A program made the translations under genes and the position numbers. This document shows positions 4,351-25,572 of a stretch of DNA of 51,705 bases, piece after piece. Numbering within the stretch: position 1 is the stretch's first letter; each line of letters starts with the position of its first letter. The notes under the pieces are model-generated. The model saw only the letters and a program-made list of their open reading frames with translations, was not told the origin of the DNA and did not search any database. Origin of the DNA: an uncultured Gammaproteobacteria bacterium (GTDB lineage: Bacteria > Patescibacteriota > Patescibacteriia > UBA1558 > GWA2-36-10). The stretch lies in assembly GCA_964638415.1 (NCBI GenBank), contig CAZWYP010000001.1:1-51705 (forward strand), written 5' to 3'.

Positions 4351-4863
4351 CTACAAAATCTCAACTTTTAAGTATTTAGCGCCGAATTTAATAGCTTCTT
4401 GCTTATCTGCCATCCAAATATCCATACGGTAATAATAACGCTTATTCATCCTATCTTCCACTACGAAGATCTTATCACCATAAACATCAGGAAAACGAAC
4501 CATGGTGCCTTTAGGTAAAAAGTTAGTAGCCACAATACCGTCTCTAACATGGGTATTAAAAGCAGTAATAAAAGGGGTATCGTCAGTTTGACCTGGCTCA
4601 GAATTATAAGCGGTTACTACGATTTTCATAGTCTGTCTTGGCTGACGTTGGCCAATTTCCGGCAAAGATGGTCCTGGATTATAAGACTTAATGGCTGTTT
4701 CCATTACTGGGCCTAATACTTCTTTTTGGCTAATATTAGGAATATCCTGAGATAAAGCTGTTTGTGGCAAGTCAAAAATAACCAAAATACCCAATAAAAT
4801 AGCAGGTAAAACCTTAAATCTAGTAATTTTTCTTAAATTTTTCATTAATTTGGCTAATTCCAT
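4351..4863 (-). CDS. 3D (Asp-Asp-Asp) domain protein, membrane-anchored
   Basis: VTAYNS...DDTPFITA...GIVATNFLP.GT...VVEDRM...RMDIWM pattern; N-terminal hydrophobic anchor. Confidence 0.85.
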   Translation of the reverse strand: MELAKLMKNLRKITRFKVLPAILLGILVIFDLPQTALSQDIPNISQKEVLGPVMETAIKSYNPGPSLPEIGQRQPRQTMKIVVTAYNSEPGQTDDTPFITAFNTHVRDGIVATNFLPKGTMVRFPDVYGDKIFVVEDRMNKRYYYRMDIWMADKQEAIKFGAKYLKVEIL

Positions 4864-19052: not shown

Positions 19053-19129
19053 GGGCATATAGCTCAGTTGGTTAGAGCGCCACACTGATAATGTGGAGGT
19101 CGGAAGTTCAACTCTTCCTATGCCCACCA
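19053..19129 (+). tRNA. tRNA-Ile(GAT)
   Basis: Cloverleaf; anticodon arm CCACA-CTGATAA-TGTGG; encoded CCA. Confidence 0.95.
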
Positions 19130-19130
19130 T

Positions 19131-19205
19131 GCCGCGGTAGCTCAGTGGTAGAGCAGAGGCCTGAAGAGCCTTGTGTCGGTGGTTCGATCCCGCCCCGCGG
19201 CACCA
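19131..19205 (+). tRNA. tRNA-Phe(GAA)
   Basis: Cloverleaf; anticodon loop CTGAAGA; encoded CCA. Confidence 0.95.
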
Positions 19206-19217
19206 TTTTTTTAAAAA

Positions 19218-19294
19218 CGGGGTGTGGCGCAGTTGGCTAGCGCGCGTGCTTTGGGAGCATGAGGTCGGAGGTTCAAGTCCTCTCACCCCGACCA
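19218..19294 (+). tRNA. tRNA-Pro(TGG)
   Basis: Cloverleaf; anticodon loop TTTGGGA; encoded CCA. Confidence 0.95.
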
Positions 19295-19305
19295 TTTAAA
19301 ATATT

Positions 19306-19334
19306 TTGAACCTTTATAATATATATGATATAAT
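19306..19334 (+). promoter_or_regulatory. Internal promoter for the HTH-LAGLIDADG-like ORF and tRNA-Gly(TCC)
   Basis: TTGAAC-17-TATAAT with an extended -10 TG. Confidence 0.6.
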
Positions 19335-19355
19335 ACTATTAGTTAGTTCAATAAT

Positions 19356-20027
19356 ATGATAACTAAAAGTATAAAACAAAAAGCAATAGAATACAGAAAA
19401 CAGGGGTATTCGTATAATTTAATCTCTCAAAAGCTAGATATAGCTAAAAGCACTCTAAGCCATTGGTTAAGAGAAATTCCTTTTAATCCTAACCGAGAAG
19501 TGATAGAGCGAGTACGAGATGCTAGATTAAAATCAGCTAAATTTAAAAATGGACAGCGGTTAGATAATATAATCGCTATGAGGCTGGAAGCTATAAAAGA
19601 GCTGGGCAATATCACTAAAAGAGATCTATGGATGATGGGTATTGGACTATACTTAGGCGAAGGTTCTAAAGCATATGAATATATTAGAATCGCTAATTCT
19701 GATCCTCAGGTTATCAAAATATCTATGAAGTGGTTCAGAGAAATTTGCGGTTTAAAAAATAATAATTTCAGATTAAACCTTCATTTATATCCCGATTCTA
19801 ACATTAAAAAATCTATAAATTACTGGTCGCTCATAACAGGGCTTAGTAAAAATCAATTTGGTAAAATACAAATAGATCGAAGAATTAATAAATCAAAAAA
19901 TAAGAAAAAATTATTACCTAATGGAACGCTCCATATAATAGTAAAAAGTAATGGTAATAAAAAATTGGGGGTAAGCCTTCATAGAAAAATAATGGGCTGG
20001 ATAGAGGCCGTGGAGAATAAAATATAA
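19356..20027 (+). CDS. HTH plus LAGLIDADG-like (homing-endonuclease/WhiA-like) protein
   Basis: N-terminal HTH (GYSYNLISQKLDIAKSTLSHWL); LAGLIDADG-like helix MGIGLYLGEGSK followed by IANSDP; Lys/Ile-rich. Confidence 0.7.
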   Translation: MITKSIKQKAIEYRKQGYSYNLISQKLDIAKSTLSHWLREIPFNPNREVIERVRDARLKSAKFKNGQRLDNIIAMRLEAIKELGNITKRDLWMMGIGLYLGEGSKAYEYIRIANSDPQVIKISMKWFREICGLKNNNFRLNLHLYPDSNIKKSINYWSLITGLSKNQFGKIQIDRRINKSKNKKKLLPNGTLHIIVKSNGNKKLGVSLHRKIMGWIEAVENKI

Positions 20028-20031
20028 TCAA

Positions 20032-20106
20032 GCGGGTATGGTATAATGATTATTATGTCTGCCTTCCAAGCAGACGATACGGGTTTGATTCCCGTTACCC
20101 GCTCCA
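20032..20106 (+). tRNA. tRNA-Gly(TCC) with a non-canonical elbow
   Basis: Cloverleaf; anticodon loop CTTCCAA; D-loop AATGATTA; T-loop TTTGATT; encoded CCA. Confidence 0.9.
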
Positions 20107-20119
20107 GATCTATCAAAAG

Positions 20120-20144
20120 AACAACCCTAAAGGTTGTTTTTTTG
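20120..20144. repeat. 25-bp terminator hairpin, direct repeat copy 1
   Basis: AACAACCCTAAAGGTTGTTTTTTTG, identical to 22280-22304. Confidence 0.9.
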
Positions 20145-20981
20145 CTTTAAAATTTGTCGAGAGGGATATGAATAATTTAACTGTTCGCTATTACTTAATA
20201 AATATAAATAATCAATTAGTTTTTCATCGCTAACTAGGTCTGATGTTTCTAATAAAATAGATACTGCTTTATTTCTTATTGCACCAGAGGGTAATAATAA
20301 CAACCTATCTTTAATTAAATCATAAATCTTTTTTTTCTGCTTAGCCTTTAATTTTGAAACTATTGGTATTAGCTGTCTTAAAATTATATTAATTTCTTCT
20401 TCTGTCTTGGAATCTAACTTATTGATAAATATACTGATCAACTCATCATCTTTTTCAATCCACTGACTGGCTGTTATCAGATCATAATGATATTTACTCT
20501 TTATTATCTTTTGAAAGTCTTGGTAATTATCTTTTAAGATTTTATTAATTTCTTTTTCTAATTTATACAAAATCTTATCATTAGAATAAATAATGCCGTT
20601 GTTCCTGGTACCGGATAATTTTCCTTGGCCGGAATTATAAATAAAATCCAACCTAGCTTGGTGCTGACTAAGTAAATTTTTTATCTTTGCCAAAAATCCT
20701 TGAGACACCTCCTCTTTATGCTGATCTTTAATAAAATAATTATCTGCCGACAATTCACAGCTTATAACCGTCATCTCTAAATCCGGATAAAGTGGGTTCA
20801 TAATAGATACCACTTTATAATCATTATATACAAATTTTTTCAATTCTTTTTCTATCTCTAATAGTTCCTCATAATCATAATCCTTGCCAATGAGCTGGTT
20901 AAACGTATTAATGTTAACTTGCTGCGGGTAATTTATACCATCATGAAGCCAAAATTCAATCTGTTTTAATTTATATTTCAT
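20127..20981 (-). CDS. Hypothetical protein, 284 aa, helical C-terminus
   Basis: Long AT-rich ORF; its stop codon lies inside the terminator repeat. Confidence 0.7.
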   Translation of the reverse strand: MKYKLKQIEFWLHDGINYPQQVNINTFNQLIGKDYDYEELLEIEKELKKFVYNDYKVVSIMNPLYPDLEMTVISCELSADNYFIKDQHKEEVSQGFLAKIKNLLSQHQARLDFIYNSGQGKLSGTRNNGIIYSNDKILYKLEKEINKILKDNYQDFQKIIKSKYHYDLITASQWIEKDDELISIFINKLDSKTEEEINIILRQLIPIVSKLKAKQKKKIYDLIKDRLLLLPSGAIRNKAVSILLETSDLVSDEKLIDYLYLLSNSEQLNYSYPSRQILKQKNNL

Positions 20982-21083
20982 AGAATAATCTTATCATAAA
21001 TTAATAATAACTTAATCTTGACTAAAAAATAATTTTATATTATAACTTACCTAATTTTCTAGTTCTTTAAAAAGGAGATTACT

Positions 21084-22055
21084 GTGGCTATTCTAGTGCT
21101 AACAAATAAATGGGATCCTCACTCGGACTCAGTGATTGAACAAATAGAGCACCTGGGCGCTGAGGTGGTTAGAATTAACACTGAAGACATTGGGCAAAAT
21201 AAACTCTCATGGCAGCTAGCTGTTGATGTTCCGCTTATTACAACGCCGGAAAACAGAGTGGTCTCTACCAATAATATCCGTGTTGTATACTTGCGTCGAA
21301 CACCAAAAGTTGCAGTTGCCAACCTTGATTCTAAATACGAGAAGTTTGTCCAATATGAATTTTCGGTTTTTACCGAATCACTGGAGACAACTTTACCCGA
21401 TGTAACTTGGTTTGATCATCCAATCCACAGAAGTTATGCAGACAATAAAATACGACAATTAACCAAAGCTAAGCAGGTTAATCTTGTTGTTCCACCAACA
21501 TTGGTGACAAATGATTTCGAGCAAATCAAAAAATTTATCTCGCTTGGCAAGGTCGTTTACAAAACCTTGTATGCTCCTGTGATTGATTACGGCCAGCAAG
21601 GCACATCTGTTGTCCACACCACACTACTTGATCCCAAACGGTTGATGGAATACGGAGAATTGATTAGCTCCTGTCCGGGAATTTTTCAGTCTTTTGTTGA
21701 AAAAGCTTATGATCTGAGAATTCATTTCATCAACGGGCACATAATACCAATTAAAATTGATTCTCAAAAATTTGAAGAGTCGATAATTGATTGGCGGAAG
21801 GCGAATTTCAGAAAACTGAACTATGAGATTGTGGAAATTCCACAGGATATTAAGACGAAAATCTCAATCTTCATGCAAGAATTGAATTTGCGGCTCGGAA
21901 TATTTGACTTCGCTGTAACAGCAAATGGAGAATATGTTTTTCTGGAGCTAAATCCTGATGGAAATTGGCTATGGATAGATTCGTTTATCAACTACCAAAT
22001 CAGTCAAAAAATTGCTGAACAGCTCGTCTCCTCACATGAGAGAGAAAGGAGGTGA
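21084..22055 (+). CDS. MvdC/MvdD-type ATP-grasp peptide maturase (graspetide synthetase)
   Basis: GTG start after an AAGGAG SD; DNKIRQL..A, PPTLVTND, VVYKTL, IFQSFVEKAYDLRI, DWRK, FLELNPDGNWLW motifs. Confidence 0.9.
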   Translation: MAILVLTNKWDPHSDSVIEQIEHLGAEVVRINTEDIGQNKLSWQLAVDVPLITTPENRVVSTNNIRVVYLRRTPKVAVANLDSKYEKFVQYEFSVFTESLETTLPDVTWFDHPIHRSYADNKIRQLTKAKQVNLVVPPTLVTNDFEQIKKFISLGKVVYKTLYAPVIDYGQQGTSVVHTTLLDPKRLMEYGELISSCPGIFQSFVEKAYDLRIHFINGHIIPIKIDSQKFEESIIDWRKANFRKLNYEIVEIPQDIKTKISIFMQELNLRLGIFDFAVTANGEYVFLELNPDGNWLWIDSFINYQISQKIAEQLVSSHERERR

Positions 22056-22060
22056 TGATA

Positions 22061-22228
22061 ATGATTCTGGAAGTCAAACCACTTGCTTCTTTGTTTGCCA
22101 GTGATCCCAGGCCGCTAATGGATAATTCTCAGGAATATAATCCTGATATCCAAAGGGATCCTGGGTGGCAACAAAGAGCAAACGGTACCGATACTTATAG
22201 GGGTGACACGGAAGATCACGACAAGTAA
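22061..22228 (+). CDS. Putative graspetide precursor peptide, 55 aa (not in the ORF track)
   Basis: MILEVKPLASLFASDPRPLMDNSQEYNPDIQRDPGWQQRANGTDTYRGDTEDHDK; AAGGAGGTG SD overlaps the maturase stop; followed by a terminator. Confidence 0.8.
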   Translation: MILEVKPLASLFASDPRPLMDNSQEYNPDIQRDPGWQQRANGTDTYRGDTEDHDK

Positions 22229-22238
22229 GTAATCGGCC

Positions 22239-22272
22239 TAGGTCCTCAACTAATACGTTGGGGACCTATTTT
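22239..22272 (+). terminator. Terminator of the ATP-grasp/precursor operon
   Basis: TAGGTCCTCAAC-loop-GTTGGGGACCTA-TTTT. Confidence 0.75.
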
Positions 22273-22279
22273 ATTATTT

Positions 22280-22304
22280 AACAACCCTAAAGGTTGTTTT
22301 TTTG
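22280..22304. repeat. 25-bp terminator hairpin, direct repeat copy 2
   Basis: Identical to 20120-20144. Its TTGTTT lies 17 nt before TATAAT (22317-22322), upstream of tRNA-Gly(CCC). Confidence 0.9.
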
Positions 22305-22334
22305 TTATTAGCGCTCTATAATGCCTACTATTAG

Positions 22335-22408
22335 GCGGGATTAGTACATCGGTAGTACGCGTGCTTCCCAAGCATGAGAGGCGAGTTCGACTCTCGTATC
22401 CCGCTCCA
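22335..22408 (+). tRNA. tRNA-Gly(CCC)
   Basis: Cloverleaf; anticodon loop TTCCCAA; encoded CCA. Confidence 0.93.
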
Positions 22409-22522: not shown

Positions 22523-23773
22523 TTAATTTTCAGATGGCCAGATACTGTTAAGATGAATAATGCCCGGTCTCATTCTGTAACCATTACTAACATAAGTGAG
22601 AATAGCTCCATCATCAGGTATTAAAATAATCCGAGCGCGATTAGCAGTAGAGACACCATAAGCAATAACTGAAGTATTGGGACTAATTAAAGTATCGGTT
22701 AACCCAAATTGAGTTGAATTGCCAGGATTAGCATCCATGGTTATATCACCATACAACCTAATATTTTTAGAAGTTCCTCGGCTGACAATAATTGGATTGT
22801 CTAGAGCAAAAGTAGATGTAGCCCTGTCACCAACTGGAGGAGCCGCATTAATTGGTCCTAATGCTACATTACCATCAAATACGGTTAAGTTAGTAGCATT
22901 AGATGAAGAAGCCGCAAATAATATCGCTGTAACACGAATATCTTCTCCTGAATCAGTAGCGTCAAAAGTCCAAGATCCTAATAAAACATCATTGCTACCA
23001 ATAGCTACTTCTCCATCGATTGGCATGCTATCTCTGGTAACAGATAATGAAGCCATCCTTATGGTTTGGGTATTAGTATTAACAATTGTATCCGGAGTAA
23101 TAACAACTTCCCCACCGTTATTATGACCATGGGCAATAATAGCAGTAGCTGGAGTAATTAAGCTGGCATAAATTGTGTCATTATCTAGCCAACCACTATT
23201 ATTCATTAAATCACCAACAACTTTAATCACTGTTTCTCCAACCGGTAAAGTAAAGTTATCCTCAAAATGCACTGTTAAAGTATCATGGCTTAAATTTGTT
23301 GGTCCAGCTAAACTAACACCCGTAAAAGCATCTACTAGCCTAACTGATTGTAAGGCACCTTCAATGGTTGTGCTAGAAGTAGAAGCAATACTTAGAGTTA
23401 AGTTTGTAATATCAACCGCTTCATTTTCTACTGTAATTTTAAAACCGCCCAGAACTTGATTATAGCCTACGGTAATATTTTCTGCACCTAATATATTACT
23501 TCTTTCAACTATCAAATTAGTAGTAGATGTTGGGGTCTCTAATAAACTTTCTAAATAAGCAACCCTATTTTCTAAGGCTATAAATCTAGCCTCATCCCAG
23601 CCTTCACCGGGCGGTCCAGGTATTAATTCTATATTATCGATCTGCCGTTGAAGACCATTGATAGCATCCCACAGTTCCTGAAATGGATGACCATTAGATG
23701 CGGAAACAAAATTAACAGCTACCAATAAGACTATAGCAGTAGTTATTATTACTAATTTCCTCATAATTTCCAT
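22523..23773 (-). CDS. Secreted surface/S-layer-like protein with a short coiled coil/GPP neck and beta-sandwich repeats
   Basis: Signal peptide; LQRQIDNIELIPGPPG; Thr/Asn-rich repeats of the LGxF..T....E.V.(I/V)T.L type. Confidence 0.7.
   Translation of the reverse strand: MEIMRKLVIITTAIVLLVAVNFVSASNGHPFQELWDAINGLQRQIDNIELIPGPPGEGWDEARFIALENRVAYLESLLETPTSTTNLIVERSNILGAENITVGYNQVLGGFKITVENEAVDITNLTLSIASTSSTTIEGALQSVRLVDAFTGVSLAGPTNLSHDTLTVHFEDNFTLPVGETVIKVVGDLMNNSGWLDNDTIYASLITPATAIIAHGHNNGGEVVITPDTIVNTNTQTIRMASLSVTRDSMPIDGEVAIGSNDVLLGSWTFDATDSGEDIRVTAILFAASSSNATNLTVFDGNVALGPINAAPPVGDRATSTFALDNPIIVSRGTSKNIRLYGDITMDANPGNSTQFGLTDTLISPNTSVIAYGVSTANRARIILIPDDGAILTYVSNGYRMRPGIIHLNSIWPSEN

Positions 23774-24086: not shown

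Positions 24087-25572
<1,486 letters not shown>

Follow-up and report, generated by a model that had tools for sequence, protein, structure and literature searches.

Graspetides are RiPPs (peptides synthesized by the ribosome and then modified post-translationally) made by ATP-grasp ligases, and their gene clusters and precursors have been described in candidate phyla radiation (CPR) bacteria as branches 1 and 2 (Makarova et al. 2022, Biol Direct 17:7, PMC8939145). Some of these CPR loci have helical-repeat (tetratricopeptide repeat, TPR) accessory proteins, and a 'cluster 23' protein, many members of which have a signal peptide and whose alignment shows an IDQxR-like motif, accompanies every branch 2 locus and frequently those of branch 1 (PMC8939145). 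Makarova et al. 2022 (PMC8939145) acknowledge that the role graspetides play in CPR bacteria is still an open question. A recent survey distinguished 43 groups with more than 21,000 predicted graspetides, candidate-phyla groups included (Carter et al. 2026, PMC13097080). For rosaritide (MirB/MirC), the ligase depends for its activity and stability on an additional protein that strictly co-occurs with it, and this dependence of graspetide synthesis on a partner protein was first reported in 2026 (Carter et al. 2026, PMC13097080). Protease inhibition is an established property of microviridins (PMC9826346). Here, we analyzed a graspetide locus in a stretch of 51,705 nucleotides, hereafter the window, which comprises positions 1 to 51,705 of contig CAZWYP010000001.1 in an assembly placed in Patescibacteriota (GCA_964638415.1).

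Our analyses indicate that the window very probably carries a three-gene graspetide module of about 2.2 kb (20120-22304), consisting of an ATP-grasp ligase, a precursor peptide of 55 amino acids (aa) and a linked third gene, T'. The ligase probably ties the peptide into rings. Judged by its sequence, the locus belongs to the graspetides, given that its ligase falls in a graspetide-type clade, a leader-bearing precursor adjoins it, and the core contains both donor and acceptor residues; the score for the ligase domain PF21068 falls slightly short of its threshold. An earlier note on this DNA had already proposed a graspetide locus, perhaps one making an inhibitor of host proteases, but as a minimal two-gene unit that was unexpected in a CPR genome. 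The locus is real and was correctly recognized, and it is less surprising than was claimed. CPR clusters were published in 2022 (PMC8939145), and the best 80 genome loci for the ligase included 19 from CPR and 7 from DPANN or other archaea, so the argument from rarity fails; relatives of the enzyme are frequent in genomes of CPR and DPANN. Two features were missed in the earlier note, the obligatory third gene and the direct repeats flanking the module.

Ligase, precursor and linked third gene

The window ligase matched the maturase models of NCBIfam with E-values of 1e-61 (TIGR04185, MvdC), 6.7e-61 (TIGR04187, SAV_5884 family), 9e-44 (MvdD) and 1e-37 (grasp-with-spasm), compared with 2.3e-5 for RimK and 5e-5 for glutathione synthase (GshB). 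Its relatives in PDB were AMdnB (3e-39), MdnB (2e-36), CdnC (2e-29), MdnC (4e-27) and, distantly, PsnB. All of the solved relatives are graspetide ligases, with microviridin and chryseoviridin ligases being the best matches. The assignment to an MvdC/D-type enzyme rather than RimK or GshB, made in the earlier note, is thus borne out. Furthermore, the ATP-grasp motif E288-x-N290 and other ATP-grasp residues are invariant across the clade alignment, and a precomputed match to PF21068, the MvdD-type pre-ATP-grasp N-terminal domain, is present in most ligase homologs, including the five closest. The ligases linked to the peptide family described below form a single clade when 157 ATP-grasps are placed in a neighbour-joining tree. 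A metagenome scan with the ligase alignment retrieved, among the matches listed, outgroups with at most 34% identity and one partial family locus (L094). Full-length ATP-grasps approximately 29% identical to the window ligase also occur in two phage genomes, a human faecal phage (MT835913.1, 8836-9780) and Leptospira phage LE1 (KF114876.1, 59120-60070).

The short open reading frame (ORF) downstream of the ligase, MILEVKPLASLFASDPRPLMDNSQEYNPDIQRDPGWQQRANGTDTYRGDTEDHDK, runs from the ATG at 22061 to 22228 and belongs to a conserved family. The three closest ligases (42-44% identity, metagenomic) are each followed by an ORF of 55-56 aa that overlaps the ligase stop and has the same leader and core, and the closest named genome, Candidatus Parcubacteria SURF_51 (QZJA01, L010), has the same layout 3' of its ligase. 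Throughout the family loci examined, a co-oriented ORF of 51-59 aa lies directly after the ligase stop or overlaps it. A profile built from six of these peptides and searched against 5.8 billion proteins retrieved 14 clusters, all of the same type and nothing else; one of them carries the annotation 'hypothetical protein' in Candidatus Moraniibacteriota, and the clusters always adjoin a ligase of the same clade. With 13 homologous clusters elsewhere and invariant residues in both leader and core, the peptide is, on sequence grounds, far more than a chance ORF. Accordingly, the homologous loci, in which the earlier note had suggested looking for a downstream peptide, do have one, and its view of the 55-aa ORF as the precursor stands. 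A 57-aa version starting from the ATG at 22055 (P0017) is present in the protein collection, which means that at least one gene caller had predicted it. Alternative starts lie at GTG 22052 and ATG 22055.

The leader is conserved as P-F/L-G/A-x-x-F ... Y-x-x-x-x-Q. In the alignment of 14 sequences, its Pro and the Tyr and Gln of the second motif are invariant, and the segments KPLASLF and YNPDIQ, picked out in the earlier note as leader motifs, coincide exactly with the conserved P-h-h-x-x-F and Y-x-x-x-x-Q. Likewise, the C-terminal segment that it proposed as the core, TDTYRGDTEDHDK, is the conserved core, with the 13-residue consensus T-x-T-[YWF]-x-x-x-T-[EDQ]-D-x-D-x at the C terminus. T1, T3, T8, D10 and D12 are invariant in the 14 clusters and in three further loci found later, whose cores are TPTWRKDTDDHDA, TPTFLPHTEDHDA and TKTYQKWTEDHDA. 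Position 4 is Y or W in the 14-sequence alignment and F in one later-found locus. Position 9 is E in 13 of the 14 clusters and in 15 of 17 sequences once the later loci are counted; the variants are Gln in P0025 (Joint Genome Institute, JGI; TSTYWKWTQDHDA) and Asp in L178 (4939-5109; TPTWRKDTDDHDA), and they bear on which acids form rings. Lys is common at position 6 but not conserved, the window having Gly, and a lactam is therefore not characteristic of the family. In most members T1 is preceded by Gly, and the precursor has no GG cleavage motif. Codons at the invariant Thr and Asp positions, and at the Glu position, differ synonymously between loci, which points to selection on the encoded protein.

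The nearest outgroup ligases (30-34% identity), some of them from CPR, adjoin different cores, such as TFTTGNNLKDPDD and TATKTTWKGSDPDD. Four of them are followed by short ORFs (L090 1322-1477, L011 4983-5132, L093 1070-1192 and L095 1784-1897) whose leader differs (PxxEVF or PEIF) and whose T-rich cores end in ...DPDD, and which represent other candidate graspetide families; L011, unclassified, is the sole genome-bin locus among the four. In addition, one lineage has a 42-aa ORF just 5' of the ligase (L006 4828-4956, and also L007, L008 and L009) with a leader-like RPMIFGAP motif (MVAVEKSIRPMIFGAPVIGENEKDPLLVTILVMTVDMTVSLC), which is possibly a second precursor or else a decoy leader.

The third gene links the window to the rest of the family. 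Every other family locus has a convergent gene of about 285-320 aa directly 3' of the peptide, with no Pfam match. In the window, no gene follows the peptide directly and tRNA-Gly(ccc) takes this place; the 284-aa T' upstream of the ligase (20127-20981, minus strand) is 28-35% identical, over its full length, to the convergent neighbour in five other loci. An exhaustive HMMER search of 1.84 billion proteins retrieved only 25 representatives of T', a family as small as that of the peptide, while a word-index search with T' returned only itself. Three newly found homologs each adjoin a family peptide and, where the contig continues, an ATP-grasp. When the T' set was compared with 181 locus sequences by tblastn, the 22 loci that matched were those carrying the peptide, and T' was absent from about 159 outgroup loci with other graspetide-type ligases. 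This co-occurrence covers family loci with enough flanking DNA, one short contig ending too early. As T' strictly co-occurs with peptide and ligase, the unit comprises three genes, not the two of the earlier note. The GC content of T' is 27.8%, compared with 40.8% for the window.

An AlphaFold2 model of T' from an 18-sequence alignment (predicted local distance difference test 93, predicted template-modelling score 0.88) consists of an N-terminal alpha/beta domain (1-133) and an all-helical, armadillo/HEAT-like repeat domain (136-280). Armadillo-like repeat folds typically bind extended peptides. A fold search with the N-terminal domain gave no significant match, only weak POTRA-like ones (E >=0.04, template-modelling (TM) score about 0.37). 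T' had no match in Pfam (including repeat families and DUF6624), NCBIfam, PADLOC, PHROGs or phage genomes, and its profile matched nothing below E 0.07 among PDB sequences. Inspection of the N-terminus by eye revealed no signal peptide, and T' appears from this to be cytoplasmic. Two assignments were considered and rejected. A Ser-His-Asp triad (S133, H107, D135) is improbable, as H107 is not fully conserved, and T' is not a 'cluster 23'/DUF6624 protein, given the lack of a signal peptide and of a DUF6624 or other Pfam match.

Layout, flanking repeats and genomic context

The module and its immediate flanks contain the following features (window positions).

20032-20106, plus strand: tRNA-Gly(tcc), the left flank of the module (ARAGORN and Rfam)
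20120-20144: direct repeat copy 1, AACAACCCTAAAGGTTGTTTTTTTG, a perfect 25-nt repeat with a hairpin and T-run, overlapping the last five codons and the stop of T'
20127-20981, minus strand: T', accessory protein of 284 aa, of no known family
21018-21046, plus strand: promoter-like TTGACT-17-TATAAC in the 102-nt divergent intergenic region (read from the sequence)
21072-21077, plus strand: Shine-Dalgarno sequence AAGGAG, 6 nt 5' of the GTG start of the ATP-grasp gene at 21084
21084-22055, plus strand: graspetide-type ATP-grasp ligase, 323 aa, GTG start (NCBIfam, Pfam and PDB matches)
22047-22052, plus strand: Shine-Dalgarno sequence AGGAGG, abutting the TGA stop of the ATP-grasp gene (22053-22055) and 8 nt 5' of the ATG at 22061
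22061-22228, plus strand: precursor peptide, 55 aa (conserved family of 14 clusters, 3' of a clade ATP-grasp)
22079-22099, plus strand: leader motif 1, P7-L-A-S-L-F-A13 (family consensus P-F-G-x-x-F-A; P invariant)
22136-22153, plus strand: leader motif 2, Y26-N-P-D-I-Q31 (family consensus Y-S/D-x-E/D-x-Q; Y and Q invariant)
22187-22225, plus strand: core, T43-D-T-Y-R-G-D-T-E-D-H-D-K55 (T1, T3, T8, D10 and D12 invariant)
22239-22268, plus strand: intrinsic terminator hairpin 1, a 12-bp stem followed by a T-run (terminator scan and folding)
22280-22304: direct repeat copy 2, doubling as terminator hairpin 2 (hairpin 22280-22298)
22335-22408, plus strand: tRNA-Gly(ccc), the right flank of the module (ARAGORN and Rfam)

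The promoter-like site, ATP-grasp gene, stop-overlapping Shine-Dalgarno sequence, 55-aa ORF and terminator described in the earlier note are all present in the sequence. The folding energy of 22226-22312 is -29 kcal/mol (z = -4.5 against shuffles). The promoter-like site (TTGACT at 21018-21023, then 17 nt, then TATAAC at 21041-21046) is plausible but of little weight, because such matches are no more common in this AT-rich region than in shuffles (9 found, 9.4 expected); it was not listed by the promoter scan because the last letter of its second hexamer is C.

The perfect 25-nt direct repeat brackets the module exactly, with copy 1 beginning 13 nt past tRNA-Gly(tcc) and copy 2 ending 30 nt ahead of tRNA-Gly(ccc); no such match is expected by chance. 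It has the form of a terminator-like hairpin, and the final five codons of T' lie in copy 1. There is no further copy in the window and none in the other 180 loci compared. An unrelated 44-nt direct repeat (43 of 44 positions identical) flanks the module of L004, a JGI metagenome contig, with copies at 2309-2352 and 4625-4668 (spacing 2316), between the start of the seryl-tRNA synthetase gene and the stop of a 133-aa gene. This arrangement resembles that of an inserted module with a long duplication of its target. Four other loci examined have no flanking direct repeats.

The order of genes differs as well. When window positions 20127-22228 were compared with L001, L004, L006, L010, L170 and L176, the window order (T' divergent upstream, then ligase and peptide) was a circular permutation of that in the other loci (ligase, peptide, then T' convergent downstream), and the genomic context of the module differs in each lineage. 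Two independent assemblies (L174 1318-2983 in GCA_054013435.1, and L175 in a Logan assembly) contain what looks like a decaying copy, in which only the N-domain of the ligase (185 aa) is left and T' is broken into two ORFs of 161 and 152 aa, with the 55-aa peptide intact. Taken together, the flanking repeats, permuted order, varying contexts, low GC content of T' and decayed copy suggest, at the level of sequence, a mobile and sometimes decaying cassette.

Pfam scans of the neighbouring genes found no transporter or protease within about 5 kb of the module, in agreement with the earlier note. The neighbours comprise a nucleoside phosphorylase, an Lnb_N membrane protein, tRNAs, a helix-turn-helix (HTH) protein, a 416-aa protein, a 16S rRNA gene, TrmD and S16. 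The 416-aa protein (22523-23773, minus strand) has a hydrophobic N-terminus, a very low third-position GC content (21%) and no Pfam match. A cluster of tRNA genes (Ile, Phe, Pro, then Gly) at 19053-20106 is broken by a 223-aa gene (19356-20027) with an N-terminal HTH and a GC content of 30.8%; this region and the module (19.3-22.3 kb) form the part of the window with the lowest GC content. The rRNA operon is unlinked, as about 22 kb with protein-coding genes separate the partial 23S gene (1-2096) from the 16S gene (24088-25572) on the same strand. Judged by this arrangement and by the named relatives of the locus (Candidatus Parcubacteria and Candidatus Moraniibacteriota), the window is likely to come from a CPR bacterium.

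Proposed mechanism and alternative explanations

Following established graspetide enzymology, the ligase would recognize the precursor through the leader motifs P-h-h-x-x-F and Y-x-x-x-x-Q and, with ATP, activate the side-chain carboxylates of core acids D10, D12 and usually E9 by phosphorylation. The hydroxyls of T1, T3 and T8 would then attack the activated carboxylates and close the rings. Two or three omega-ester macrolactones would result in the 13-residue core T-x-T-Ar-x-x-x-T-E-D-x-D-x (Ar, aromatic), a number expected from the three invariant Thr, the two invariant Asp and the usually conserved Glu. By analogy with microviridin spacing, one arrangement might be T3-E9, T1-D10 and T8-D12, which we offer as a guess. 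T', which would always be expressed from its own promoter on the opposite strand, may bind the precursor or the product. It might assist the ligase as partner or chaperone, take part in processing or confer self-protection. A peptide-binding accessory role is our best guess, and our confidence in any single one of these functions is low. The module contains neither an exporter nor a recognizable protease. Since its context differs in every lineage and long direct repeats bracket it in two loci, it probably moves as a cassette. A more far-reaching proposal is possible but doubtful in our view. It holds that T', an armadillo-like protein that is dedicated to the module and founds a new family, is the obligatory partner of ligase and peptide and binds the precursor or the ring-closed product; that the cassette occurs, so far, only in genomes of candidate phyla; and that the unit of about 2.2 kb moves by an unspecified mechanism, leaving direct repeats of 25-44 nt, and can circularly permute its gene order.

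Several observations weigh against parts of this picture. The window ligase scores far below the curated cutoff of every named NCBIfam equivalog (208.8 bits against 425 for MvdC, 149.9 against 475 for MvdD and 206.2 against 350 for TIGR04187) and consequently belongs to none of them; its PF21068 score is 26.1 bits against a gathering score of 27. A third ring is not universal, considering the Gln and Asp found at core position 9 in P0025 and L178. Given that T' is never co-transcribed with ligase and peptide, its part in biosynthesis is not obvious. The best Foldseek matches of T', designed armadillo-repeat peptide binders, are weak (E about 2e-3, TM score 0.35-0.42), and no significant structural or sequence relative points to its function. 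As for mobility, flanking repeats were found in just two of the six loci examined and are unlike in sequence, the window repeat may recur for another reason since it is also a terminator hairpin, and there is no recombinase inside the module.

Different explanations of the locus as a whole were also considered. The module could be a selfish, defence-like or toxin-antidote-like intracellular cassette rather than the source of a secreted natural product, with the ring-closed peptide as the effector and T' as antidote, sensor or target. Such a cassette would fit a module without an exporter or leader peptidase, in which T' lacks a visible signal peptide, has a predicted fold of a peptide-binding type and always lies on the opposite strand with its own promoter; the patchy distribution, lineage-specific contexts, direct repeats, site between tRNA genes and decaying copies would fit it too. 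We regard it as improbable all the same, as none of the three proteins has a PADLOC or PHROG match apart from a generic ATP-grasp PHROG, T' has no phage match, and many graspetide clusters without a transporter are still regarded as natural products (PMC13097080). Less probable again is that the operon is a minimal one of two genes, with the 284-aa upstream gene as an unrelated neighbour. The divergent transcription of the window T', its own promoter region and its GC content (27.8% against 39-45%) could be read in this way, as could the fact that T' shares a transcription unit with ligase and peptide in no locus. However, T' homologs adjoin the other two genes in each of the 21 other family loci whose flanks are long enough, across differing genomic contexts and despite the changed gene order of the window. 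An unrelated neighbour is likewise hard to reconcile with the absence of T' from the loci of other graspetide-type ligases, with a T' family as small as the peptide family, and with the joint decay of ligase and T' in L174/L175.

A housekeeping ligase of the RimK/GshB type, adding for example glutamates onto a protein tail, with a small ORF that is not its substrate, would be suggested by the JGI label of homologs ('glutathione synthase/RimK-type ligase-like ATP-grasp enzyme'), by weak GSH-S_ATP and RimK model matches and by one PHROG named as an S6-modification enzyme. The RiPP-maturase models score about 185 bits above RimK, though, the enzyme stays below the family cutoffs of rimK_fam (23.9 against 143.4 bits) and glut_syn (22.4 against 299 bits), the solved relatives are all graspetide ligases, and the downstream peptide is conserved and limited to the enzyme clade. 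On these sequence comparisons the enzyme is a graspetide-type ATP-grasp, and the housekeeping alternative, to which we give next to no probability, is for practical purposes excluded. The three-gene module with a linked T' is the reading we retain.

If this reading is right, the family offers a compact test case, with three genes in 2.2 kb and a 13-residue core bearing five invariant residues predicted to form rings. Because the core is short and contains these five residues, expression in E. coli could establish the ring topology. The family also makes it possible to ask what the strictly linked, armadillo-like T' contributes. If the repeats mark real mobility, it would further exemplify how a RiPP cassette spreads from one reduced genome to another.

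Comparison with described graspetide systems

By sequence, the locus is not a microviridin locus, does not belong to the SAV_5884 family and is not part of the CPR branches as defined in Makarova et al. 2022. It resembles those branches in having a single MvdC/D-like ATP-grasp and a short precursor that combines a Phhx(1,2)h leader and a core of Thr and Asp, in its occurrence in reduced genomes, often with no transporter at the locus, and in having no assigned function (PMC8939145); leader motif 1 of the window fits Phhx(1,2)h, the published graspetide leader signature (PMC8939145). The core of branch 1, TxxxTx(6-10)Dx(1-4)D, is not compatible with the T-x-T-Ar-x-x-x-T-E-D-x-D of the present family, and T' is found here in place of the absent 'cluster 23' protein. 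In those parts of the supplements of PMC8939145 and PMC13097080 that were available, core strings and the genome QZJA01/SURF_51 led to no family member, the string matches being unrelated peptides, and neither the precursor family nor T' was found. Group 27 of Carter et al. 2026, which consists of ligase and precursor only and occurs in candidate phyla (PMC13097080), was considered and rejected since its precursors are unrelated.

Microviridins (group 1; MdnB/MvdC and MdnC/MvdD) provide the closest solved and modelled enzymes. The family leader P-F-G-x-x-F-A resembles the microviridin PFFARFL, and the core opens with T-x-[K or T]-aromatic and has an acidic end, which is compatible with a compact multi-ring cage. 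On the other hand, the family has one ligase instead of two, no conserved Lys or obligatory lactam and no PSD motif, has a second leader motif (YxxxxQ) and T' in addition, and scores far below the MvdC and MvdD equivalog cutoffs. Membership among the microviridins was rejected because of these scores, the single ligase and a core that is not TxKxPSDx(E/D)(E/D).

The two-part leader is reminiscent of the actinobacterial graspetide groups 8, 9 and 11 (Lee et al. 2020; 'cluster 2' in Makarova et al. 2022, prunipeptin-type cores included), which have PF[GA]xxx ... Y[DS]xxxQ; leader motif 2 of the window resembles the YDPxxQ of 'cluster 2' leaders. TIGR04187, the model for the SAV_5884-family ligases of this cluster, scores as well as MvdC, and the printed group 11 cores T-S-T-A-G-S-K-T-H-W-D-D share the layout T-x-T ... 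T ... D-D. Nevertheless, hosts and accessory genes differ and the window ligase lies below the TIGR04187 cutoff. Homology of the precursors to those of groups 8, 9 and 11 is not supported, as hhalign aligned the leader motifs without significance (probability 1%).

For the third gene, the nearest parallel is rosaritide. The partner protein in that group is a predicted divergent PpiC-type isomerase, whereas T' is predicted to be armadillo-like; in both cases an extra protein strictly co-occurs with the ligase, and rosaritide thus provides a precedent for one possible role of T'.

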